32,000 bases of DNA from Candidatus Scalindua sp. (GCA_031316235.1 JALDRA010000001.1:3300001-3332000), one strand, 5' to 3'; shown: positions 1,878 to 25,705, numbered from the stretch's first letter. A program made the numbers and translations. The notes: generated from the sequence alone by a model not told the origin.

Positions 1878-2040
1878 TGATACTAAATTTACCAGTCAGT
1901 ACACTGGTAGAACAAGACTGAAAAAAAATGACATCTTGTTTAGTGAATTAAAAAATGAGTATAATCGCTAATTAAGGTGTGAATCAAATCGAATGTAGTC
2001 AAGAATGAATTTGACCCCTTTACTGCAAGTGAGACTTAAA

Positions 2041-3803: not shown

Positions 3804-3832
3804 AACGTTCAGACTTTGGACTGAAACGATGG

Positions 3833-3944
3833 TATACTCATCTCATATTGGTTTTCGGATAAAATCCGAGATAAATTTGAGCGAGTATACCATCACCAAG
3901 ATCTGGTTTCCGGTAAAACCGGAAACCAGATCGGTTTTAGTATA
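3833..3944 (+). repeat. 112-nt MITE-like element, copy 1
   Basis: The ends are TATACT...AGTATA. Inside is a perfect 15-bp hairpin, GATCTGGTTTCCGGT-AAA-ACCGGAAACCAGATC, followed by GGTTTT. Other copies are at 5046-5157, 9319-9430 and 25594-25705. Confidence 0.8.
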
Positions 3945-4085
3945 AATGAGGTGGTTGATGTTCTCTTACTGACTTATGTTAAAATGTATTTAATGATGAG
4001 TATGTAACTGTTTTTTTGGAGTATGGTAGGATAAAAACTGTTACGGTATAGGTGATTGTCGAGCGTATCCTATGGGAAATACTTA

Positions 4086-4337
4086 TTAAATGTCTTTTCT
4101 GTGAAGAAACCTTACAAAAATGATGCTATTATCAATATGATCTATTCCGATGCGATAGTTACCTGATTTAATCCTGAAGTATGAATCATAGCCTTTAAGC
4201 TTTCTAAGATTCTTTATTTCTTTAATCTTAGTTGCGTCCTTAACTTCTTGAATTATGAGACTAAGACGATTTAATGTTTTTCTATCTTTGATTCTTTTTA
4301 GGTCCTTGGCAAAGCTTTCTTCGAAGAGAGTTTCCAT
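4086..4337 (-). CDS. RelE/ParE-family toxin
   Basis: 83 aa with LRKLKGYDSYFRIKSGNYRIGIDHIDNSIIFVRFLHRKDI, a typical RelE/StbE C-terminal pattern. Confidence 0.8.
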   Translation of the reverse strand: METLFEESFAKDLKRIKDRKTLNRLSLIIQEVKDATKIKEIKNLRKLKGYDSYFRIKSGNYRIGIDHIDNSIIFVRFLHRKDI

Positions 4338-4540
4338 TATTTTCTTTCGAGTAGCTTTGTAATTTGATCTTCTTCTACAAATTTATTCTTTCGTCCTTTT
4401 TTAATTGCTTTACCAAGACCTACTTCCTCTATGGCTTCTGTGACAAGTTCATACAATTCTTCTTTATTTTCATGTAACATCTCAATTAAACTGTCTTTTA
4501 TTAATGATTTAAGCTTATCGTCTTCTCTTTTTGTCTTCAT
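4337..4540 (-). CDS. Antitoxin partner of the RelE/ParE toxin
   Basis: Starting at Met32 of the listed ORF (cat at 4538-4540) gives a 67-aa charged helical protein. Its stop overlaps the toxin start. Confidence 0.65.
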   Translation of the reverse strand: MKTKREDDKLKSLIKDSLIEMLHENKEELYELVTEAIEEVGLGKAIKKGRKNKFVEEDQITKLLERK

Positions 4541-5045
4541 TTCACTATCCCCTATTTTACTTTTATCTTGGGAGCAATTATAACAAAATAATTGCTCCCA
4601 AGATAAAAGTAAATACTGAGTCATGAGGATCACCTGTTAAGATGAAAACTTTAATACATTATCCACACCCTGATTTTTAAAGTTTTTAGTTACGGTTTAC
4701 TATTCCGCTCCAGTCACCCATCCATTCTTCACTACATGATGGGAATTAAAGTGCACTCTTAATTACGGTACGACCACCAAGAATAGAATATTCAGGAGCG
4801 TGATAATTCTCCAGGGCGCTAACTTGCAAAAACTATGGGCTAACGGAAAGTGAAACACTGAAAGTTGAAATATGGTCAGTTTAAACTGTTTTCAGTGAAA
4901 TCAGTCTTCCGTGGGTAAGCTGGATATCGTACCTACCAGTTTTTTTGTACAAAAAAAGCAGGAAAAAGTCGGAATTTGCTTGACAGGTTTTTCGTCTAAA
5001 ATTGCTAGGAATTTTTGTTACCAGAGGTTTAGAATATTTACGCAG

Positions 5046-5157
5046 TATACTCATCTCATACTGGATTTCGGATAAAATCCAAGATAAATTTGAGCGAGTA
5101 TACCTTCACCAAGATTTGGTTTCCGGTAAAACCGAAAACCAAATCGGTTTTAGTATA
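5046..5157 (+). repeat. MITE-like element, copy 2
   Basis: Near-identical to 3833-3944. Confidence 0.8.
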
Positions 5158-5329
5158 TATGTGAGGCAGGCAGGCTAAACAGAGCCGCTAAAAGTGAAAA
5201 CAGGCAGGAGTGTGCACGTTTTTTCAAGTGGCGTAAAGTGGCATTTAAGGGGCAAAAAAATCCCGAAATAAGCACATGGTATAATAGCAAAATTGAATTA
5301 CATTAAAGCTATTTCCCCATGTATCCTAA

Positions 5330-7517: not shown

Positions 7518-8603
7518 ATGAAACTACCCAGCATAAAGCAAGTGAAGAATTTGAAGGGGAAGAAGGTTCTCTTGAGAGCAGATCTGAATGTATTTATAGA
7601 AGATGGTGAGGTGAAGGGTGACTTCAGGATAAAACAGGCCCTGCCTACTATCAAATTGCTAAAGAAGGGCGGCGCGAAGATCATTATTTTAAGTCATGTC
7701 ACTAAGGGGCGATCGGATGGCCTCTTGCCTGTGGCACGTTATATCAATGAATCTTTTAAAATAGATTTTTCTAGAGAGGTGTTAGGAAGCGAGACAAGGG
7801 AGAAGATTGATAGTATGAAAAATGGCGGAGTCCTCCTCCTTGAAAACTTAAGATCAGACGACAGAGAGAAGAACAATGACGCTGACTTTGCTCGACAGCT
7901 GGCTTCCCTCGGTGATATTTATGTTAATGACGCTTTCTCCGTCTCTCATAGGAAGCACGCTTCTATTGTTAGTCTGCCGAAGTTTCTCCCTTCATACTCT
8001 GGTCTTCTCATGGATGATGAAGTTTCTAATCTTTCTAAAGCGTTTAGGACAAAGCATCCATTTCTCTTAATATTGGGTGGAGTTAAGTTTGAGAGTAAAC
8101 TGGGCGTGTTGAAGCGGTTTATAAAAACTGCCGATAAGATATTTATCGGTGGTGCCTTGGCGAACGTCTTTCTCAAAGAGAAAGGGATTGATATCGGAAA
8201 GTCTATTTATGACAAAGATGTGAATATTAAGAAGTTTGTGAAGAGTAAGAAAATTGTCATCCCTAAAGACATGGTTACAGTGAGTGGTATCAATTGGGAC
8301 ATTGGAGATGGCGCAATAAAAGAATTGAAAGAGATAATCGATAAAGCTAAGTTTATCATCTGGAGCGGACCTTTGGGCAACTTCGAAGGCGGTTATAAGA
8401 AGGGGACGACCGAGGTTGCCAAAGCCATCGCGAAGTCGAAGGCTGATTCGGTGGTAGGAGGAGGGGATACTATCTCAGCTATTAGGAAACTAAAGATATT
8501 GAATAAGTTTTCCTTCGCCTCGACAGGTGGAGGGGCAATGCTCGCCTTTCTCTCGGAGGGCACACTGCCCGGCATAGAAGCGCTTAAGAAAAAGAATAAA
8601 TAA
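7518..8603 (+). CDS. pgk: Phosphoglycerate kinase (short, divergent)
   Basis: LKGKKVLLRADLNV at the N-terminus, and GGGDT and STGGGAMLAFLSEGTLPGIEAL at the C-terminus. 361 aa. Confidence 0.85.
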   Translation: MKLPSIKQVKNLKGKKVLLRADLNVFIEDGEVKGDFRIKQALPTIKLLKKGGAKIIILSHVTKGRSDGLLPVARYINESFKIDFSREVLGSETREKIDSMKNGGVLLLENLRSDDREKNNDADFARQLASLGDIYVNDAFSVSHRKHASIVSLPKFLPSYSGLLMDDEVSNLSKAFRTKHPFLLILGGVKFESKLGVLKRFIKTADKIFIGGALANVFLKEKGIDIGKSIYDKDVNIKKFVKSKKIVIPKDMVTVSGINWDIGDGAIKELKEIIDKAKFIIWSGPLGNFEGGYKKGTTEVAKAIAKSKADSVVGGGDTISAIRKLKILNKFSFASTGGGAMLAFLSEGTLPGIEALKKKNK

Positions 8604-9303: not shown

Positions 9304-9318
9304 ACTGAATCACAATTG

Positions 9319-9430
9319 TATACTCATCTTACAATGGTTTTCGGATAAAATCCGAGATAAAATTGAGCGAGTATACCTTCACCAAGATTTGGTTTCCGGT
9401 AAAACCGAAAACCAAATCGGTTTTAGTATA
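9319..9430 (+). repeat. MITE-like element, copy 3
   Basis: Near-identical to 5046-5157. It starts 16 nt after the hdeD-like stop. Confidence 0.8.
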
Positions 9431-9477
9431 TTAACAAGCACGCTGCTTTATGGTACGTCCTGGTAGAATTGCTTTGT
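9429..9477 (-). other. attC-like site, split by intron fragment A (weak)
   Basis: The plus strand reads TATTAAC-AAGCA...TGCTTTGT. The arms AACAAGCA and TGCTTTGT(T) are complementary. It ends in TTGT exactly at the intron 5' end. Confidence 0.35.
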
Positions 9478-9637
9478 GTACGCACAGAATGTGTATGAAC
9501 TAATAGTGTGAAAGTCCCTTTTGGTTTAACCACTGGGTTTCCGTTCAAGTACTGGATAAATGACCCCGGTTGTGTAGAGAAAGTCCAGATACTTATCCGG
9601 GGAGCTCATTTGGCATGCGATATTGCAGTTCATAGTG
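9478..9637 (+). ncRNA. Class C group II intron RNA fragment A (5' end plus distal domain I to J2/3, internally deleted)
   Basis: GTACGCACAGAATGTGTATGAACTAATAGTGTGAAAGTCCC ... GAGAAAGTCCAGATACTTATCCGGGGAGCTC...GCAGTTCATAGTG parallels fragments B and C. Confidence 0.55.
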
Positions 9638-9642
9638 TTTTT

Positions 9643-10096
9643 TTAATCGCCAATTCCTCCGAAAATGTATTCACAGGAACATCCTGAATATATATAATTG
9701 CCCCTTATAACGATAGTCCATCTCAACAGTGTCATTTTTCACTTCACCACCACAAAATGAACAGTCCCCAAATTTATGCATTGCTTCCTCCTTCCTTTGC
9801 CCTTGTTCTTTCATCAATCCATTTGGGCAGTTTAGGTATATAAACAGTTATTATTCTAAGCCATTTTATTAAGGTAAATCCGCAAACTATATGTATTGGC
9901 CGCTCCTCTGAATAGCCGAGAATAAGGCAGCTTGTACCCCTTGGATCATCAGGGTAAACTTCAATTATTTCACAATTAGAAATAACATTTTCAATATCTG
10001 AGTTTTTTATGTCTTCAGCATATCTTTCTTTCTCTGCATAAAACGTATTTCATATTCGTCACTTGAAAATTTTTCTCTGATTTCTCGAATATTCAT
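9643..10096 (-). pseudogene. Decayed duplicate of the DUF4258 toxin / YgiT zinc-finger antitoxin module
   Basis: Aligns with 12095-12662. Differences are a 111-nt deletion between CAGGAACAT direct repeats, a 1-nt deletion in the antitoxin part, and a 1-nt deletion near the toxin N-terminus. Confidence 0.7.
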
Positions 10097-10221
10097 ACAA
10101 TAGAATTTTTGAGATCACTAATCAAGATGTTACCCCAATCTTAGCTTCTTCATGGTTTCTCCAAAGTGTTTCCTTGTCCTATGCAGTCAAGAAGAGACCC
10201 CTTTATGACCCTTTATCTTAT

Positions 10222-10404
10222 TTAACAGTGTGTTATGCTTCCTTTAAGCGTATTTACCCACACGATTATCCGAATACCCATAATTGGTAAACGATTGTTA
10301 AATTTGCAATCCTCTATTTCATCATCATCATCTTTTGTACAGCCAAGTTTTGGATTCATTTTATCTCTTTGTGATTCAGAAAGATAAATCTCCCTCCTTG
10401 TCAT
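10222..10404 (-). CDS. Hypothetical 60-aa protein (weak call)
   Basis: Open frame only. Its stop lies in a GCATAAC box. Confidence 0.25.
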   Translation of the reverse strand: MTRREIYLSESQRDKMNPKLGCTKDDDDEIEDCKFNNRLPIMGIRIIVWVNTLKGSITHC

Positions 10405-10446
10405 TGAGATTGTTTTGGATATGGACTCTAAGTTATCTCTTTATTA

Positions 10447-10504
10447 GGATAACGATCAAACTCACCCGATTACGTAAGAGGTCGGGATGAGTAACCTTTT
10501 AGCT
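10447..10504 (-). other. Candidate attC site
   Basis: The minus strand reads AGCTAAA-aggtt-ACTCATCCCG-(14 nt)-CGGGTGAGT-ttgatc-GTTATCC, 58 nt. It starts 7 nt after the stop of the 160-aa ORF and has one extrahelical T. Confidence 0.35.
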
Positions 10505-10510
10505 GGATTT

Positions 10511-10993
10511 CTATGAAGAGTTTCCCAACCAATCACGTTTTGGTGGCTTAGGAAGTTGCTTACCTTTTTCACTTTCCGTATAAATCTGACAGTCTACTTT
10601 TATTGTTGTCCGCAATTTTGAAAATGCATCTCTGATGTCGTCTGGAGTTTTATCCGTATCACATAGAACCTCCCGCGCAATGTTTAAATCTTTTATTGCG
10701 TTAAATGACAAAAACATCGCTCCCCCTTTATCGTAATACCATTTAACAAGATCCAAATTAAGCTGTCGTCTTTGTTTATCACTAATATTTTTATCGCCCC
10801 AATATTTCGCACTCATTGTGTGCAACCATAGTTTCTGATACGCACTTACGCGCAAGTGGGCGATCTCTTTCAAAAATTCATCACGCGCCTTTCTTTTTTG
10901 TAAGAGCCAATTAAAGTAAAAACCAACAACAATAGCGAGCAGCGCTAGGAGTCCCTTATCAAGCAAAATCTTAAATAGTTCATCATGTTCCAT
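10511..10993 (-). CDS. Hypothetical membrane-anchored protein
   Basis: 160 aa with one N-terminal TM helix (GLLALLAIVVGFYFNWLL) followed by a helical soluble domain. I do not recognise the family. Confidence 0.5.
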   Translation of the reverse strand: MEHDELFKILLDKGLLALLAIVVGFYFNWLLQKRKARDEFLKEIAHLRVSAYQKLWLHTMSAKYWGDKNISDKQRRQLNLDLVKWYYDKGGAMFLSFNAIKDLNIAREVLCDTDKTPDDIRDAFSKLRTTIKVDCQIYTESEKGKQLPKPPKRDWLGNSS

Positions 10994-11087
10994 CTGGATT
11001 TCTCCAATTTGCCAAATAATTACATAGCTAACGCCTCACATACTCAATCACCACCTATGTGTTATGCTTGCAAGGGAGGCTAGAAGT

Positions 11088-11151
11088 GGCAGCCGTAATA
11101 AATATTAAACTGCGTGGTTATTGGTGGTTGGCTTAATGCGATTCGTTATGC
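11088..11151. repeat. Hairpin repeat H, copy 2
   Basis: Shares about 65 nt with 2041-2107 and ends in GTTATGC (11145-11151). A second GTTATGC lies at 11061-11067. Confidence 0.6.
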
Positions 11152-11181
11152 TTATTGTTTTGCCGTAGATTTTTGAGAAGA

Positions 11182-11467
11182 ACTAATAAACTTCATCATG
11201 TGTGCCAATATCAGCTAATAAAATATGGTCTTCCATTTCTTTTGAACTTTTCACGAAGTCAAATACAATTCGCATGTCATAATCTACAGTACATGCCCAT
11301 GATCCTAAAAGTTTTCCTTTTAGCTTATGTGTTTCTAGTTTTGGCGCAAAAGGATCTTTCTGTAATAGTCTTAAGGTGTCCGCTATAACCAGTTATAATT
11401 TTGGATTCTTCTTTAGTGTTCTTTATAACGCTCTTATGAATGTTTTGCCCCAAACAAGGGTCCTCAT
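11182..11467 (-). pseudogene. RelE/YafQ-type toxin pseudogene
   Basis: ..LVWGKTFIRAL*RTLKKNPKL*LVIADTLRLLQKDPFAPKLETHKLKGKLLGSWACTVDYDMRIVFDFV...ILLADIGTHDEVY*. There are in-frame TAA codons at 11422-11424 and 11392-11394. The ATG (11465-11467, ATGA overlap with the antitoxin stop) is one base out of frame; the length is 286 nt. Confidence 0.65.
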
Positions 11468-11685
11468 GGTGTAATCTCTTTCATTATGTCGTCAACTGAA
11501 CCTTTTCTGACTTCTCCTCGACTATATTCTTCTCTCGCTTCCTTTATATTTTCGGAAATTGTTTCTCGTCCTTTTTCGATTAATCGATTTTTCACAATAT
11601 TAATTAGATCCTGCTGCTGATAATCAGGAAAAGATTCTATTATATCCAAGGCTTCCTGAAATGAAACCGACTTCTGAACTTGCAT
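11464..11685 (-). CDS. Antitoxin, apparently intact, paired with the decayed RelE-like toxin
   Basis: Starting at Met41 (cat at 11683-11685) with AGGAGG 7 nt upstream gives MQVQKSVSFQEALDIIESFPDYQQQDLINIVKNRLIE...GSVDDIMKEI, 73 aa. Confidence 0.65.
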   Translation of the reverse strand: MQVQKSVSFQEALDIIESFPDYQQQDLINIVKNRLIEKGRETISENIKEAREEYSRGEVRKGSVDDIMKEITP

Positions 11686-11727
11686 AATTAAGACCTCCTG
11701 TAATAGTACAGTTAATTTAGTTTTAAA

Positions 11728-11786
11728 ACATAACGTTTGCAATTTCGAGGTCGCGTTTTTGCGGCGTTCTTCTCGAATTGCCTTGT
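11728..11786 (-). other. attC site, split by intron fragment B
   Basis: The plus strand reads ACATAAC-gttt-GCAATTTCGAG...CTCGAATTGC-CTTGT. The arms are complementary with one extrahelical T. On the minus strand it ends in GTTATGT. Confidence 0.5.
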
Positions 11787-12090
11787 GTAAGCCCGGCATG
11801 GGCATTAGCTATTGGGCTGAAAGTTCCCTATAGTAAGGAATATCATAACATAAACTATCAGTTGAAGGCAAGGGCAGCATATTGAGGTGATGTCTAAAGG
11901 AAGTGTAAAACAAAGCAGCGAGCTGACGAACAGAAACCTGGTGTAAGGCTAACCACTCAGAGGTGAGTCTGCACAATATGACAAAACCCTGTAGCTAGGG
12001 GGAAACGGTAAAAGACCTGGTTGTTTAGAGAAAGTTCACATACTTATCCGGGGAGATCTTTTCGGCATGCGATGTTGCAGTTCATAGTGG
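11787..12090 (+). ncRNA. Class C group II intron RNA fragment B (domain I to J2/3; degenerate GTAAG 5' end)
   Basis: GTAAGCCCGGCATGGGCATTAGCTATTGGGCTGAAAGTTCCC...TTGAAGGCAAGG...AAAGGAAG...GAGAAAGTTCACATACTTATCCGGGGAGATC...GCAGTTCATAGTGG closely parallels the remembered Oceanobacillus iheyensis IIC intron. No D5/D6 and no RT ORF. Confidence 0.7.
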
Positions 12091-12094
12091 TTTT

Positions 12095-12346
12095 TTAAAA
12101 CGTCAGTTCCTCCGAAAATTTATTCACAGGAACATTAATGGTTTTCTTCCATTGATTCTTTGCTTGGATTCTACGTTCTATTTCTTTCGATACTTTTCCA
12201 ATAAGATATTTTTCCCCACATTGTTGACAAACTCCAGCAGGAACATCCTGAAAGATATATAATTGCCCCTTATAACGATAGTCCATCTCAACAGTGTCAT
12301 TTTTCACTTCACCACCACAAAATGAACAGTCCCCAAATTTATGCAT
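12095..12346 (-). CDS. YgiT-type zinc-finger antitoxin (MqsA N-domain-like)
   Basis: MHKFGDCSFCGG...VPAGVCQQCGEKY has two CxxC pairs. GGAGG lies 6 nt upstream of the Met at 12346. Confidence 0.7.
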   Translation of the reverse strand: MHKFGDCSFCGGEVKNDTVEMDYRYKGQLYIFQDVPAGVCQQCGEKYLIGKVSKEIERRIQAKNQWKKTINVPVNKFSEELTF

Positions 12347-12662
12347 TGCTTCCTCCTTCCTTTGCCCTTGTTCTTTCATCAATCCATTTGGGCAGTTTAG
12401 GTATATAAACAGTTATTATTCTAAGCCATTTTATTAAGGTAAATCCGCAAACTATATGTATTGGCCGCTCCTCTGAATAGCCGAGAATAAGACAGCTTGT
12501 GCCCCTTGGATCATCAGGATAAACTTCAATTATTTCACAATTAGAAATAACATTTTCAATATCGGAGTTTTTTATGTCTTCAGCATATCTTTCTTTTTCT
12601 GCATGAAAACTTATTTCATATTCGTCACTTGAAAATTTTTCTCTGATTTCTCGAATATTCAT
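12339..12662 (-). CDS. DUF4258-family toxin
   Basis: FHAEKERYAEDIKNSDIENVISNCEIIEVYPDDPRGTSCLILGYSEERPIHIVCGF...LRIITVYIP matches the DUF4258 pattern and overlaps the antitoxin start. Confidence 0.65.
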   Translation of the reverse strand: MNIREIREKFSSDEYEISFHAEKERYAEDIKNSDIENVISNCEIIEVYPDDPRGTSCLILGYSEERPIHIVCGFTLIKWLRIITVYIPKLPKWIDERTRAKEGGSNA

Positions 12663-12737
12663 ACAATAGGATTATAAACCTTCTGAAACTTATTTGCTAT
12701 TGCGTTTTTGCCTTTTGTTCATTGTTGTTAATCTGTT

Positions 12738-12820
12738 GCCTGACGATGAAGTAAGAGGCGAGCCTAAAGTCTTGACCGTCAGGCCAGTGCGTTTTTTTGC
12801 GTCGGCTGAATTTTACTTGT
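12738..12820 (-). other. attC site, split by intron fragment C
   Basis: The plus strand starts GCCTGACGA (the intact site starts GCCTAACGA), contains TTTGCGTCGG (intact site TTTGCGTCCG), and ends CTTGT at the intron 5' GTGTG. Confidence 0.5.
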
Positions 12821-13150
12821 GTGTGCCCGGCATGGGCATGATCTAGTGAGCTGAAAGTCCTCTGTACATTTTCCGGTATGTTTAATGACTAAAATTACTA
12901 TCCGAAAGCAAGAGCTAAAGGGTTGCCTGAGTTTGAAGGAAGCCAGAGATCAAATCTGCGAGCCGACCTGCCTGCGTGTGGACGCACAGGCAGGCAGAAA
13001 GGTCATATTAGGATTAGCTTCCTGGCGAGTTCGCACAACATAACGAAGCCCAGTGATTCAGGAGGTAGGGTAAATGATCCGGTTGTGTAGAGAAAGTCCA
13101 CATACTTATCCGGGGAGATCTTTTTGGCGTGCGATGTAGTAGTCTGTATA
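12821..13150 (+). ncRNA. Class C group II intron RNA fragment C (canonical GTGTG 5' end, domain I to J2/3)
   Basis: GTGTGCCCGGCATGGGCATGATCTAGTGAGCTGAAAGTCC...TTTGAAGGAAGCC...GAGAAAGTCCACATACTTATCCGGGGAGATC...GTAGTAGTCTGTATA. A possible D3/D4 stub continues to about 13210. Confidence 0.7.
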
Positions 13151-13211
13151 TTAAATTTACCAGTCAGGAGACTGGTTGAGCAAGACTGACAAATAAAGCA
13201 TCACATCTTGA

Positions 13212-13646
13212 TTAGTCATTATACTCATTTTTGAGCTCACTAATCAAGATGTGACCCCAATCTTGTTCTAGATCGCCAATAAACATTTTTGCACCGTCAA
13301 AAATGGTGTAACCGCTTTTCGTTTGCGTATAAAAGACTTTACGATTTTCAATATCTATTCCCCACGATTCAACCACACCTTTGTAACTACCGCTCATGTA
13401 TACACCAACTATTAATTGTGGAGTGACTTCCTTAAAAGATATCTCTTCACTTCCTGTAACGGAACTTTTATTACCATTGATGCTTATATGGATTTTTTTA
13501 TTGGATAATCCATCTTCATGAATGTTAAATTTGTCAGCCGCATTACTACCATATCCTTTAAATCCAGAGGCTATCCAGCATTCAGCAAATGCATTATTGG
13601 CAATTAATAAAAGTAGCAAAGTGATCGTGATGGAAACAATTTTCAT
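13212..13646 (-). CDS. Secreted hypothetical protein
   Basis: The Met at 13646 is preceded by AGGAG. Signal peptide MKIVSITITLLLLLIANNAFA-ECW. 144 aa, family not recognised. Confidence 0.55.
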   Translation of the reverse strand: MKIVSITITLLLLLIANNAFAECWIASGFKGYGSNAADKFNIHEDGLSNKKIHISINGNKSSVTGSEEISFKEVTPQLIVGVYMSGSYKGVVESWGIDIENRKVFYTQTKSGYTIFDGAKMFIGDLEQDWGHILISELKNEYND

Positions 13647-13888
13647 ATTAGTTCTCCTGATAACGTCACGTATAAGTCGCTGCCACCTATGTGCTATCAT
13701 TAATAACAGAGGTTTGGAGCGGCAGCTTCAAAAATGATAAATCGCTGATGTATTGGCAGTCGACCTTCAGGCGCTTGTTAGGCTATGATGCTATGTAGAT
13801 TCTTCATGGTGTTGTTACAATAATTAGACTTTTTATAACTTATTCGTCCTTATGCTAGTTCCTCAGCCTCTCTTATAGCATCAATATG

Positions 13889-15047: not shown

Positions 15048-15119
15048 GCCTAACGACCAAGCTGTGCGGCGCAAACGAAGCGCAGCGTAGTTTGCGTCCG
15101 AACGAGCGCCTTGTTAGCC
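15048..15119 (-). other. Intact attC-like recombination site
   Basis: The minus strand reads GGCTAAC-aaggcgctcgttcggacgcaaac-(13 nt)-gtttgcgccgcacagcttggtc-GTTAGGC, a 72-nt imperfect palindrome with unpaired bases. The TAA stop of the upstream ORF lies inside the first box. Confidence 0.6.
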
Positions 15120-16550: not shown

Positions 16551-16719
16551 AAAAAATCCAGTGGTTAAACTCTAACCGTCTGGTTGAACGAAAACTGCCC
16601 GGATACAAGGCGCGTAAAAATTTTGTAACCGGAGCGTACTCAAGTACGTGAGGATTACAAAATTTTTACAGCAACGCAGTAGGTGGGTAGTTTTCGTTCA
16701 ACCAGATTGGAAATTTTTT
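16551..16719. repeat. Long composite hairpin element L, copy 1
   Basis: TCTGGTTGAACGAAAACT pairs with AGTTTTCGTTCAACCAGA (18 bp). An inner pair is GTAAAAATTTTGTAA with TTACAAAATTTTTAC (15 bp). The right arm encodes the last recN codons. Confidence 0.7.
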
Positions 16720-18401
16720 GCGTCAGTTATCATCTCCTCCGCCTGCTTTCTTGTCACATCACTTTTCTCATCACCTCTTATCATCTCCGCAATTTCCTCA
16801 ATACGTGTTTTCGTTGAAAGTACTTCGATTTCTATCTTTGTACTGTTTTTCTTTGTCGATTTGTTTACCTTCAAATGCTGATCAGCATAGCTTGCGATCT
16901 GGGGGAGATGGGTAATACAGATGACCTGGTGGGTCTGTGATACGAGTTTTAATTTTTCTCCGATAGTTTTCCCCATTCTGCCTCCAATATTCGCATCGAT
17001 CTCGTCAAATACCAGTACCGGAGTCCTGTCTGCCATGGCTAAATGCCTCTTCAGGGCGAGCATTATCCTGGAAGTTTCTCCTCCTGAGGCAATTTTTCTG
17101 AGAGGTTTTACTTCTTCACCCGGGCCGGAAGAGAACATGAATTCAACCCGGTCAAACCCTGAACTGCGAACCTCTTCCAGATTGAGATGGTTGTGATTGG
17201 TTTCCTTGATGGTTGTGATGGCAATTTCAAACTTTCCATTACGGATGCCGAGGTCTGCCAACTCTTTTTTGATCAGCGAAGATAGCCTGGTGCCTGCCTT
17301 TTTCCTCAACTGGGTAAGTTCCGTACCGTGAGCAGTGACTGATTTTTTTAACTGAGCCAGCTCTTTTTCACTGGTATCAAGGGATTCGCTTTCAGCTAAA
17401 AGATGTTCGAGCTTTTTTCTTGATTCCTCACCGTATAAGAGTATATCTTCAATTGTTGCTCCATATCTGTTGGTGAGTCTTCGGATGACCTCGATGCGCT
17501 CCTCTATTTCCCGTAACCGTTCAGGATCTGACTCATATTTTTCACTGTCTGCTCTTAACGAATTTGCAACATCTTCCAGCTGGTAAATGGTTTGATTGCA
17601 TACCTCCAGGGAATTCTCAAATCCCTTGTCAATCTCCCTGGCTTTGGACAATTCGTCTGTAACCTCTCTTAATCTACCGACTATTGAATCATCAGACTCA
17701 TACAGGCTGTTGAGGCAGTGTAATAGGGTGCTCTGTATCTTCTCGGAGTTTACGAGAATGCAGCGATCATCTTCCAGGGTATTCAGTTCAGCGGGTTTGA
17801 GATTGGCATTCTCGATCTCTTCAATCTCAAACTGGTAGAGGTCGATCTGTTTCTTTCTCTCTTCCTGATGCTCTTTGAGTGAAGAGAGATGTCTCTCCTT
17901 TTCTCTGGACAGAGAGTAAAGTTCGGAAAATTTTACACGGTGGTCGGCTGATTTTCCAAAACTGTCAAGAATAGCAAGCTGATTGTTCGGATCTGTGAGT
18001 GTCTCGTGCTCTTGCTGTCCATGGATATTGACCAGGAGCTCACCGATCTCCCGCAAGAGGGATACCGTAATGGGGTGGTTGTTAAGCGTACACTTGTTAC
18101 GTCCCTTCTGATCCAGGCGCCGCTGCATGATGATCTCATCATCCATGCAATCGACATGTTTCTGGATCTCTTCCCGGATATGTCCGTTTTCAATAAGAAA
18201 TACACCGCTCACGGCAGCCTCCTTCTTATCCGTCTTGATCACGTCACTTGATGTCCTGCTTCCCAGAAGGAAATTGAGAGCCCCGATGACCAATGATTTC
18301 CCGACACCCGTTGTACCTGTTACGATATTGAGCCCTTTGTCGAACTGGACTGTAATGGTATCGATGAGGGCAAAATTTGATATGTAGAGCTCGCTTAACA
18401 T
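16698..18401 (-). CDS. recN: DNA repair protein RecN
   Basis: MLSELYISNFALID...NIVTGTTGVGKS Walker A, long coiled-coil middle, C-terminal ASGGETSRIMLAL...LVFDEIDANIGG. Confidence 0.9.
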   Translation of the reverse strand: MLSELYISNFALIDTITVQFDKGLNIVTGTTGVGKSLVIGALNFLLGSRTSSDVIKTDKKEAAVSGVFLIENGHIREEIQKHVDCMDDEIIMQRRLDQKGRNKCTLNNHPITVSLLREIGELLVNIHGQQEHETLTDPNNQLAILDSFGKSADHRVKFSELYSLSREKERHLSSLKEHQEERKKQIDLYQFEIEEIENANLKPAELNTLEDDRCILVNSEKIQSTLLHCLNSLYESDDSIVGRLREVTDELSKAREIDKGFENSLEVCNQTIYQLEDVANSLRADSEKYESDPERLREIEERIEVIRRLTNRYGATIEDILLYGEESRKKLEHLLAESESLDTSEKELAQLKKSVTAHGTELTQLRKKAGTRLSSLIKKELADLGIRNGKFEIAITTIKETNHNHLNLEEVRSSGFDRVEFMFSSGPGEEVKPLRKIASGGETSRIMLALKRHLAMADRTPVLVFDEIDANIGGRMGKTIGEKLKLVSQTHQVICITHLPQIASYADQHLKVNKSTKKNSTKIEIEVLSTKTRIEEIAEMIRGDEKSDVTRKQAEEMITDAKNFQSG

Positions 18402-25593: not shown

Positions 25594-25705
25594 TATACTC
25601 ATCTTATAATGGTTTTCGGATAAAATCAGAGAAAAAAGGGAGTGAGTAAGGTCCTCGGCGCTTTTTGTCCGGGGATACCATTAATCAGGATCTGGTTTCA
25701 GTATA
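25594..25705 (+). repeat. MITE-like element, copy 4 (degenerate)
   Basis: The first 45 nt and the last 20 nt match the other copies. The central hairpin is replaced. Confidence 0.6.

Follow-up and report, generated by a model that had tools for sequence, protein, structure and literature searches.

The DNA analysed here, a window of 32,000 nucleotides from Candidatus Scalindua sp. (GCA_031316235.1 JALDRA010000001.1:3300001-3332000), raises the question of what three related fragments lying among small genes of the opposite strand are, and how they came to be there. Judged by sequence homology, these fragments (remnants A, B and C) are truncated, immobile copies of attC-targeting class C group II introns (IIC-attC introns), antisense to the neighbouring genes. 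Very probably such introns once retrohomed into the cassette array, and the remaining pieces are inert debris. A first-pass annotation of this DNA had described the fragments as truncated IIC-attC intron RNAs placed antisense to cassettes and after TTGT, and this core reading was borne out by the Rfam model RF02001 and by alignment to reference introns.

The reference introns numbered four: L005, L009 (Kl.pn.I3), L006 from Methylocalor and L007 from Thiothrix. When a genome collection was scanned with the block shared by the fragments only three contigs matched, all from the metagenome-assembled genome (MAG) Ca. Scalindua sp. SCAELEC01 (L002-L004); one of them, L002, is syntenic with window positions 11400-13150.

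Identity of the fragments

9478..9634, plus strand: remnant A (alignments; BLAST to the 5' ends in L003/L004 and to the L002 copy L002C; no Rfam match)
11787..12086, plus strand: remnant B (RF02001 match; collinear with domain I of L005, L006, L007 and L009)
12821..13262 (end approximate), plus strand: remnant C (RF02001 match; alignments; BLAST; inverted repeat I3)

The Rfam model group-II-D1D4-3 (RF02001, gathering score 32 bits) matches B at 11876-12043 (69.5 bits, E 4e-12) and C at 12916-13105 (60.1 bits, E 8e-10); remnant A gave no match, owing to the loss of central domain I sequence. Along the entire domain I of the references (286-291 nt), B (272 nt) and C (300 nt) proved collinear, so that the likeness to class C introns is not confined to the first 20 nt. 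BLAST of remnant C against plasmids returned 333 records, mostly Enterobacterales class 1 integrons with an annotated group II intron. In these plasmids the intron separates a resistance gene from its attC and runs antisense to that gene, L005 following aadA2 and L009 following blaIMP-4; the blaIMP-4 intron is the group IIC intron Kl.pn.I3, which disrupts an attC (PMC5027574). All four references start TTGT/GTACGCCC.. and end ..TACCCGAT/T.

The loop carrying exon-binding site 1 (EBS1) reads GCACAAGAT in the references, GCACAATAT in B and GCACAACAT in C, and the ACAA of this loop (GCACAAnAT in B and C) is complementary to the TTGT preceding each copy. B and C thus have the short pairing between EBS1 and the intron-binding site (IBS1) that is a class C trait. 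Chance resemblance, or membership of a repeat family that is not an intron, would be favoured by the missing Rfam match of A and by nothing else; the E-values for B and C, the full-length collinearity with annotated integron introns and the EBS1/IBS1 complementarity refute it.

IIC-attC introns have the bottom strand of an attC as their target, where they enter the R'' box at TTGT/T and come to lie against the direction of cassette transcription; integrase-less attC clusters (CALINs) are targeted too (PMC7923331; PMC3001079). Formally the lineage is defined by an intron-encoded protein within the monophyletic IIC-attC clade (PMC3001079); the assignment made here rests on RNA homology, there being no intron protein gene of this type in the window or in L002-L004.

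All three fragments start where the first-pass annotation had placed them, lie on the plus strand opposite to the open reading frames (ORFs), and directly follow TTGT (A gcTTTGT/GTACG, B gcCTTGT/GTAAG, C taCTTGT/GTGTG). The common 5' end and 3' block reported there were recovered in repeat families D6/D7 and in alignment A1. The 3' block measures ~46-70 nt, and a 26-nt degenerate block, GAAAGTNCANATACTTATCCGGGGAG, occurs three times in the window compared to none in 100 shuffles. The proposed ends did not hold: the intron part of A stops at 9634 and that of B at 12086, the GTG(G)TTTT which follows both being 3'-exon/attC sequence, and C continues past 13150 to ~13262.

Remnant A consists of an intron 5' end of ~45 nt, the last ~85-115 nt of domain I and the first ~27-28 nt of domain II, having lost ~150 nt from the middle of domain I, EBS1 included. 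Remnant B comprises a complete domain I (11787-12058; EBS1 ACAA at 11973-11976) and the first ~28 nt of domain II. In remnant C, domain I (12821-13120; EBS1 ACAA at 13035-13038) carries a 31-nt hairpin insertion (12960-13000) and is followed by the 5' part of domain II with the conserved hairpin ACCAGTCAGGAGACTGGT (13159-13176) and then by a 16-bp palindrome (13201-13254) which is also found in other Scalindua remnants. A secreted-protein-like ORF at 13212-13700 has its last ~19 codons (LEQDWGHILISELKNEYND and stop) encoded by this intron-derived palindrome (13212-13270); the deletion which truncated remnant C probably took away the ORF's own stop codon.

Target sites

11725..11786, plus strand: 5'-exon part of attC_B, bottom strand (fold; 98% identical in L002)
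12087..12094, plus strand: GTGGTTTT, what is left of the attC_B R'' box on the 3'-exon side (complement of AAAACATAAC, 11725-11734)
12095..12662, minus strand: DUF4258/MqsA-like toxin-antitoxin (TA) pair, the cassette whose attC holds remnant B (Pfam; repeats D1/D9/D11)
15048..15119, plus strand: unoccupied attC-like site GCCTAAC...CGCCTTGT/TAGCC with an empty TTGT/T target (R box and inner stem pair, -15.9 kcal/mol, z -1.4)

The 5' exon of remnant B reads AAAACATAAC-GTTT-GCAATTTCGAG...CTCGAATTGC-CTTGT, in which the R' complement is followed by a spacer and an L box (one base bulged), with TTGT serving as IBS1. On the other side of the remnant, GTGGTTTT stands directly before the stop codon (12095-12097) of the MqsA-like gene and matches the 3' exon CGAT/TATGTGGTTTT of those L002 and L004 remnants that keep the 3' terminus. 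When attC_B was rebuilt by taking the remnant out and restoring TAT, a canonical attC bottom strand was obtained: the R box (ACATAAC/GTTATGT) and the L box paired, the latter with a single bulged base, the spacers stayed unpaired, and the fold had -15.9 kcal/mol (z -3.66; 0/200 shuffles as good). In front of remnant B a stem-loop ends 3 nt ahead of the insertion point. The attC-like character claimed for all three sites was thus upheld for B only; the hairpins at A and C were no better than shuffles.

The unoccupied site at 15048-15119 has the architecture of attC_B, with the stop codon of a DUF5677 gene inside R'', and in the related MAG positions 4778-4833 of L004 also qualify as an attC. 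A home-made scan for RYYYAAC...GTTRRRY missed the site at 15048-15119, gave results not above shuffles, and was replaced by folding of single sites. The notion that the TA genes are a cassette which integrase put into the intron was ruled out, no attC being present between the MqsA-like stop codon and the remnant; only ~8 nt separate the two, and these match the R'' of attC_B.

Extent of the copies and loss of the catalytic domains

After the sequence which closes domain I, GGGGAGATCT, the Scalindua copies continue with TTTTYGGCRTGCGATG, aligned to the 5' strand of Kl.pn.I3 domain II, GCTTAGCATGCGATCGG. The hairpin of C and its relatives aligns with the reference domain II hairpin (ACCAGTTAGGGACTGGT, ACCAGTAAGGCTCTGGT, and ACCCGTACAGGCGCGGGT with compensatory changes). 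The block GCAGTTCATAGT had been assigned to J2/3-domain III, close to the intron of Oceanobacillus iheyensis; alignment to the IIC-attC references moves it to the 5' part of domain II. It lies between the TTTTYGGCRTGCGATG landmark and the hairpin, and its L002 homologue, GCCGTTCATATACC, continues straight into the hairpin. The references have the true J2/3-domain III motif, CAGAAGTCAGCAGACGGCATAGTAGCC, another 110-150 nt downstream; the aligned Scalindua copies lack it. A and B thus extend only ~28 nt into domain II. In B the junction ..GTTCATA/GTGGTTTT joins domain II to the 3' exon minus TAT, and the deletion would begin in domain II and extend 3 nt beyond the inferred 3' splice site.

Rfam RF00029 (Intron_gpII, domains V-VI) found nothing in the window at E<=1. 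This model also gave no match at E<=0.01 on complete class C integron introns (L005, L006), so its negative says little on the truncation of class C introns, and it was dropped as uninformative in favour of a class-specific covariance model of domains V and VI (D5-D6), R1, built from the four reference introns. The references score 96-100 bits with R1, and 32 matches in unrelated marine metagenome contigs score 41-98 bits, so the model can be taken as reasonably general. The methodological lesson is that Rfam Intron_gpII is blind to class C domain V/VI, and that missing matches are uninformative without a class-specific model.

With filters off, the best R1 match in the window and L002-L004 was 11.8 bits (E 1.4), on the wrong strand and inside a domain I hairpin; no copy in the window can therefore be catalytic. 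A search for a reverse transcriptase/maturase gene gave no plus-strand ORF longer than 77 aa in 9478-13300, which leaves no room for such a gene, and the DNA downstream of each fragment is antisense coding DNA. The statement of the first-pass annotation that D5/D6 and a reverse transcriptase ORF are lacking, and with them splicing or mobility of a copy by itself, thus agrees with R1 and the ORF scan. None of the three copies retains the reverse transcriptase gene, domain III or the catalytic domain V, so that they can neither splice nor move. The palindrome and module after C were also considered as domains III-VI of an ORF-less mini-intron, and this was ruled out by the lack of a J2/3-domain III motif and of D5-D6.

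Further intron-derived pieces and a second TA copy were located in the window:

1880..2020, plus strand: intron piece with domain II hairpin, palindrome region and terminal motif (repeat D10; alignment A2; L002C 93% identical over 140 nt)
9638-10104, minus strand: TA copy, degenerate, frameshifted and deleted, adjoining remnant A (repeats D1/D9/D11; stop codons in the copy)
10105..10215, plus strand: intron-derived module, right arm of the palindrome and ...ATGCAGTCAAGAAGAG.. motif (repeat D12; BLAST to L003 and winC elements)
~10440..10470, plus strand: intron 3' end remnant, end of domain VI, ...ATCAAACTCACCCGAT (motif search)

The module at 10105-10215 and remnant A are on opposite sides of the degenerate TA copy. 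The 3'-terminal scrap reads ...AAACTCACCCGAT/TACGT, in which TACGT is the 3' exon, followed by the stop codon of the minus-strand ORF 10511-10993; for comparison, the references end GGCTACCCGAT/T and L004 ...AACTCACCTTTACCCGAT/TATGTGG. Remnant A, the degenerate TA copy and the two pieces downstream of it look like one much-rearranged element. The piece at 1880-2020 has had its 5' side cut off by an insertion sequence (IS; transposase 53-1744). The transposase of this IS (53-1744 / 1745-1880) has a DruA-like segment at its N terminus in addition to a DDE_5 domain; the right end of the element abuts the intron remnant, apparently truncating it.

A second group II intron, not of class C, is present on the minus strand of L002 (1-1460; RF02003 matches, RVT_1 ORF), directly after the motif ATGCAGTCAAGAAGAGATTTGACC. 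The same motif closes the intron-derived module at window positions 1990-2020 and 10175-10215, and the module may therefore be the homing site of a nested intron. A 75-nt repeat (11069-11143 and 2024-2098, 81% identical, with direct GTTATGC motifs at its bounds) follows the intron-derived piece 1880-2020 and, in L002, a 56-nt intron 5' stub (L002 3905-3850).

Base pairing and decay

Covariation was assessed on an alignment of 12 sequences, the four references and eight Scalindua copies. The first-pass annotation had read CAC..GTG in A versus CCC..GGG in C as a compensatory stem change, and this could not be sustained, as no such helix belongs to the IIC fold. The proposed CCC/GGG hairpin shows a single double change (A itself), is unpaired in 3/12 copies (L003/L004), and was equalled or bettered by 136/500 shuffles. 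Covariation is seen rather in the long-range helices of which the bases concerned are part, I(i) (CCCGR pairing with YCGGG) and I(ii): double changes affect 6 pairs, in 13 cells, and 0/500 shuffles did as well; the C-to-A change of remnant A breaks a real I(i) pair.

The remnants score 60-70 bits with RF02001, about half of the 127-135 bits of the references. Between the window and L002 the coding flanks are 97-99% identical, attC_B 98% and the region upstream of the TA genes 96%; domain I of B is 90.8% identical and that of C 93.3% with 55 gap columns. The remnants have thus diverged 3-5 times as much as the adjacent non-coding attC and upstream DNA. Being 91-93% identical to the second Scalindua genome as opposed to 96-99% for their flanks, they are decaying; they evolve faster than their surroundings, and the data fit neutral decay. 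Window B has GTAAG and GGGC where L002 has GTACG and GGGG, the conserved GTACG being lost and a stem pair broken. Exchange between paralogous remnants is indicated by the mosaic 3' third of C. Adenine-specific mutagenesis of the type known from diversity-generating retroelements was ruled out as a source of the divergence by the mixed, non-adenine-biased substitution spectrum.

These results bear on two proposals in which the remnants would still have a function. In the first, the 5' fragments would be kept by selection for an outward promoter driving the next cassette of an array without Pc, for locking of the cassette through the split R'', or for both. One candidate promoter was noted:

11842..11871, minus strand: outward-facing promoter-like site in B, TTGCCT-N18-TATGAT with TG (position homologous to P1out of IIC-attC introns, compared with PMC3001079)

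P1out is active in several IIC-attC introns (PMC3001079). With its extended -10, the B site aims through attC_B at ORF 11464-11687, and both B and C occupy the same places in the second Scalindua genome. The -10 hexamer is nevertheless TATGAC in L002, its last T being lost; C has no credible P1out counterpart, and in A the corresponding sequence is deleted; promoter-like sites across the region are at chance level (11 observed versus 12.3); and the remnants diverge faster than neighbouring non-coding DNA. Exaptation is thus very unlikely, and an outward promoter is possible for B only.

In the second proposal the RNAs of domains I and II would be functional halves, joined in trans by an RNA of domains III-VI from elsewhere. 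Fragmented, trans-splicing group II introns do occur in organelles, and the three copies share their orientation and have a similar end point. Domain III is missing, however, and in A most of domain I has been lost together with EBS1; pairing of the I(ii) helix is poor in B (7/11 pairs kept) and C (6/11); the 5' splice consensus is mutated in B; the remnants diverge fast; and there is no D5-D6 in the window or in the three related contigs. A split ribozyme is hardly credible on these grounds.

History of the locus and origin of the truncated ends

Retrohoming into the attC bottom strand is the arrival route that we infer from the strong homology, the EBS1/IBS1 complementarity and the attC evidence. 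Following the known behaviour of the lineage, the intron RNA would have recognised the folded attC bottom strand, and its EBS1 ACAA would have paired with TTGT, with insertion between GT and T of the R'' box. The intron would so have come to separate the cassette gene from the remainder of its attC, in antisense orientation to that gene. The copies were shaped by deletions, by insertion of an IS and of miniature transposon-like (MITE) repeats, by duplication together with the adjacent TA genes, and by recombination or gene conversion between paralogous remnants. Their effects today are likely passive: a split R'' that should block integrase-mediated cassette excision, and repeated homology that permits rearrangement.

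Several observations weigh against this history. The B deletion ends on its right ~3 nt beyond the inferred 3' splice site, and in other remnants 4-45 nt of the intron 3' end are left; random deletion would be expected to give less tidy right ends. Versus shuffled sequence the hairpins preceding A and C have z values of +0.6 and -1.1, and these targets are no convincing attC. The share of reference-consensus domain I pairs able to form, 75-79% in the remnants versus 96-99% in the references, speaks for decay, but depends on the alignment and on a consensus drawn from four proteobacterial introns. Neither a full-length Scalindua intron copy nor an intI gene was present in the window and the three contigs of one related MAG.

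Relatives of the remnants were sought in metagenome contigs. Nothing matched the domain I 3' block AGAAAGTNCANATACTTATCCGGGG; the conserved 5' end was found at 48 loci, but past the first ~45-60 nt none of them closely resembles the Scalindua copies, and a full-length parent intron was not among them. Sixteen copies had at least 2.1 kb of downstream sequence. Nine of these were full-length introns (1.92-2.0 kb), one measured 1574 nt with two internal deletions, and one of 998 nt (L032) kept both ends; in 6/16, D5-D6 were lacking and homology stopped at ~121, 217, 627, 983 (the near-identical L029 and L030) and 1176. On shorter contigs two copies kept both ends, 563 nt (L042) and 202 nt (L055), and further homology stops were seen at ~58, 65 and 457. 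Several contigs carry two or three copies ~1 kb apart, as does the window. The truncated introns published from cassette arrays are 5'-truncated (PMC7923331); in environmental DNA 3'-truncated copies are as ordinary as 5'-truncated ones.

The tidy right ends could also mean that the copies were dead on arrival, having been made 3'-deleted during retrohoming by a reverse transcriptase which started at the 3' exon or domain VI, jumped to domain II and copied on to the 5' end. Domains II and VI are in contact in the folded intron via eta-eta', and a template jump within the same RNA would yield domain I and the start of domain II plus just 0-45 nt of the 3' end. The B junction, with ..GTTCATA joined to the 3' exon minus 3 nt, has this form; L002C keeps only CGAT of the 3' end, and the L004 copy L004b and window 10440-10470 keep ~30-45 nt; the left breakpoints of three junction types fall within ~10 nt in domain II; and L042 and L055 are metagenomic derivatives with both ends kept. 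The junctions of A and B are, however, one event, duplicated together with flanking DNA, so that independent events are few. The AT-rich CATATACCAAATTTA was also hit by MITE and IS insertion and is perhaps simply fragile, and the metagenome truncation ends are scattered from 58 to 1176 and unrelated to the 3' exon. Truncation during retrohoming is accordingly rated unlikely; if true, such copies would be the group II counterpart of the truncation of long interspersed nuclear elements (LINEs) and a route to permanently split attC sites and fixed cassettes. The preferred account remains the insertion of introns that were truncated afterwards.

Gene content around the remnants

A Candidatus Scalindua-like anammox planctomycete as host is in keeping with the Hao-like multihaem and NO-reductase-like proteins encoded in the window. 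This DNA is probably part of a chromosomal array of small minus-strand genes with attC-type recombination sites. The small ORFs around the fragments, all on the minus strand, encode the DUF4258/MqsA-like pair, DUF6883, DUF4926, DUF5677, PIN, ParE/RelB and others. No Phage_integrase-type ORF that could be an integron integrase (intI) was found among 30 ORFs scanned in the 32 kb window. A protein-based contig search returned only short contigs of sample SRR28338161 and, for the DUF4258 protein, nothing; it gave no empty-site or full-length allele.

One mobile repeat adjoins remnant A:

9318..9434, plus strand: MITE-like repeat of 117 nt, 43 nt upstream of remnant A (repeat families D2/D4)

It possibly splits the original target hairpin of A. 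Other copies are located at 3832-3948 and 5045-5161, with a partial one at 25594-25648; the repeat has short terminal inverted repeats (TATACT...AGTATA) and two internal hairpins. In L004 (~3868-3985, ~5150-5200) it is found at TA within intron remnants, with an IS200-like Y1 transposase ORF adjoining (L004 5284-6261).

Two large palindromes were noted. The first, perfect, at 4556-4613 (26+26 nt, 6-nt loop), is just upstream of a RelB-like/ParE-like pair (4086-4633, minus strand); it gave spurious miRNA-family matches on both strands and may be an operator or terminator. The second, near-perfect and 120 nt long, at 16583-16702 (GTTGAACGAAAACTGCCC...GGGTAGTTTTCGTTCAAC; DNA fold -39 kcal/mol, z -10.7), forms the right edge of the small-gene array and abuts an SMC/AAA-type ORF (16698-18401). 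A plus-strand block (MarC-like, DUF3124, phosphoglycerate kinase (PGK), DUF308) splits the array into two stretches; its PGK ORF, 7518-8603, is just 361 aa long and covers Pfam PGK profile positions 5-377 of 379 with internal gaps.

Comparison with known introns

The remnants have the same 5' end as the IIC-attC introns of integrons (S.ma.I2, Kl.pn.I3 and relatives; L005, L009), GTACGCCCrrCATGGGCAT..GTGAAAGTCC; domain I is built throughout on the same plan, GGGGAGATCT leads over into domain II, and domain II has the hairpin ACCAGTnAGGnnCTGGT. Shared too are the EBS1 ACAA/TTGT pairing in B and C, the orientation antisense to the cassette and, in B, the location in R'' of the attC bottom strand and a P1out-like site. 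They differ in lacking the reverse transcriptase/maturase gene, distal domain II and domains III, V and VI, and in residing on a planctomycete chromosome with no integrase gene nearby rather than in a proteobacterial integron; domain I identity is just ~65-75%. The intron of Oceanobacillus iheyensis, the crystallised model of group IIC, is a complete ribozyme and targets terminators rather than attC; both have the architecture of class C, a class characterised by a short IBS1, no EBS2 and insertion after a stem-loop.

Like the truncated introns UHB.F1, H.ha.F1 and H.ha.F2, which occur in cassette arrays and CALINs, some of them without a neighbouring integrase (PMC7923331), the Scalindua copies are fragmented and immobile and probably sit among attC cassettes, with TA cassettes and IS200/IS605-type elements nearby. 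Those introns are 5'-truncated, as incomplete reverse transcription would leave them, and still have domains V/VI and a portion of the intron protein gene, and H.ha.F1 and F2 belong to class IIB (PMC7923331); the Scalindua copies are IIC, with the 5' end kept and the 3' part gone. Derivatives in marine metagenomes (L042, L055, L032, and L046/L022b cut at ~627) likewise have the conserved 5' end, multicopy contigs and small-gene arrays, and many of them are truncated or carry internal deletions. Several of these keep domains V-VI and could still be ribozymes, unlike the Scalindua pieces.

Set beside these systems, the locus reveals no new mechanism; it is an ordinary kind of relic in a new host, truncated copies of this lineage being common in environmental DNA. 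It illustrates how insertions split the R'' box and leave repeated homology within an array, shows that introns of at least two subfamilies (B-type and C-type) invaded repeatedly and then decayed, and extends the link between attC-targeting class C introns and integron-type cassette arrays to the chromosome of an anammox planctomycete.

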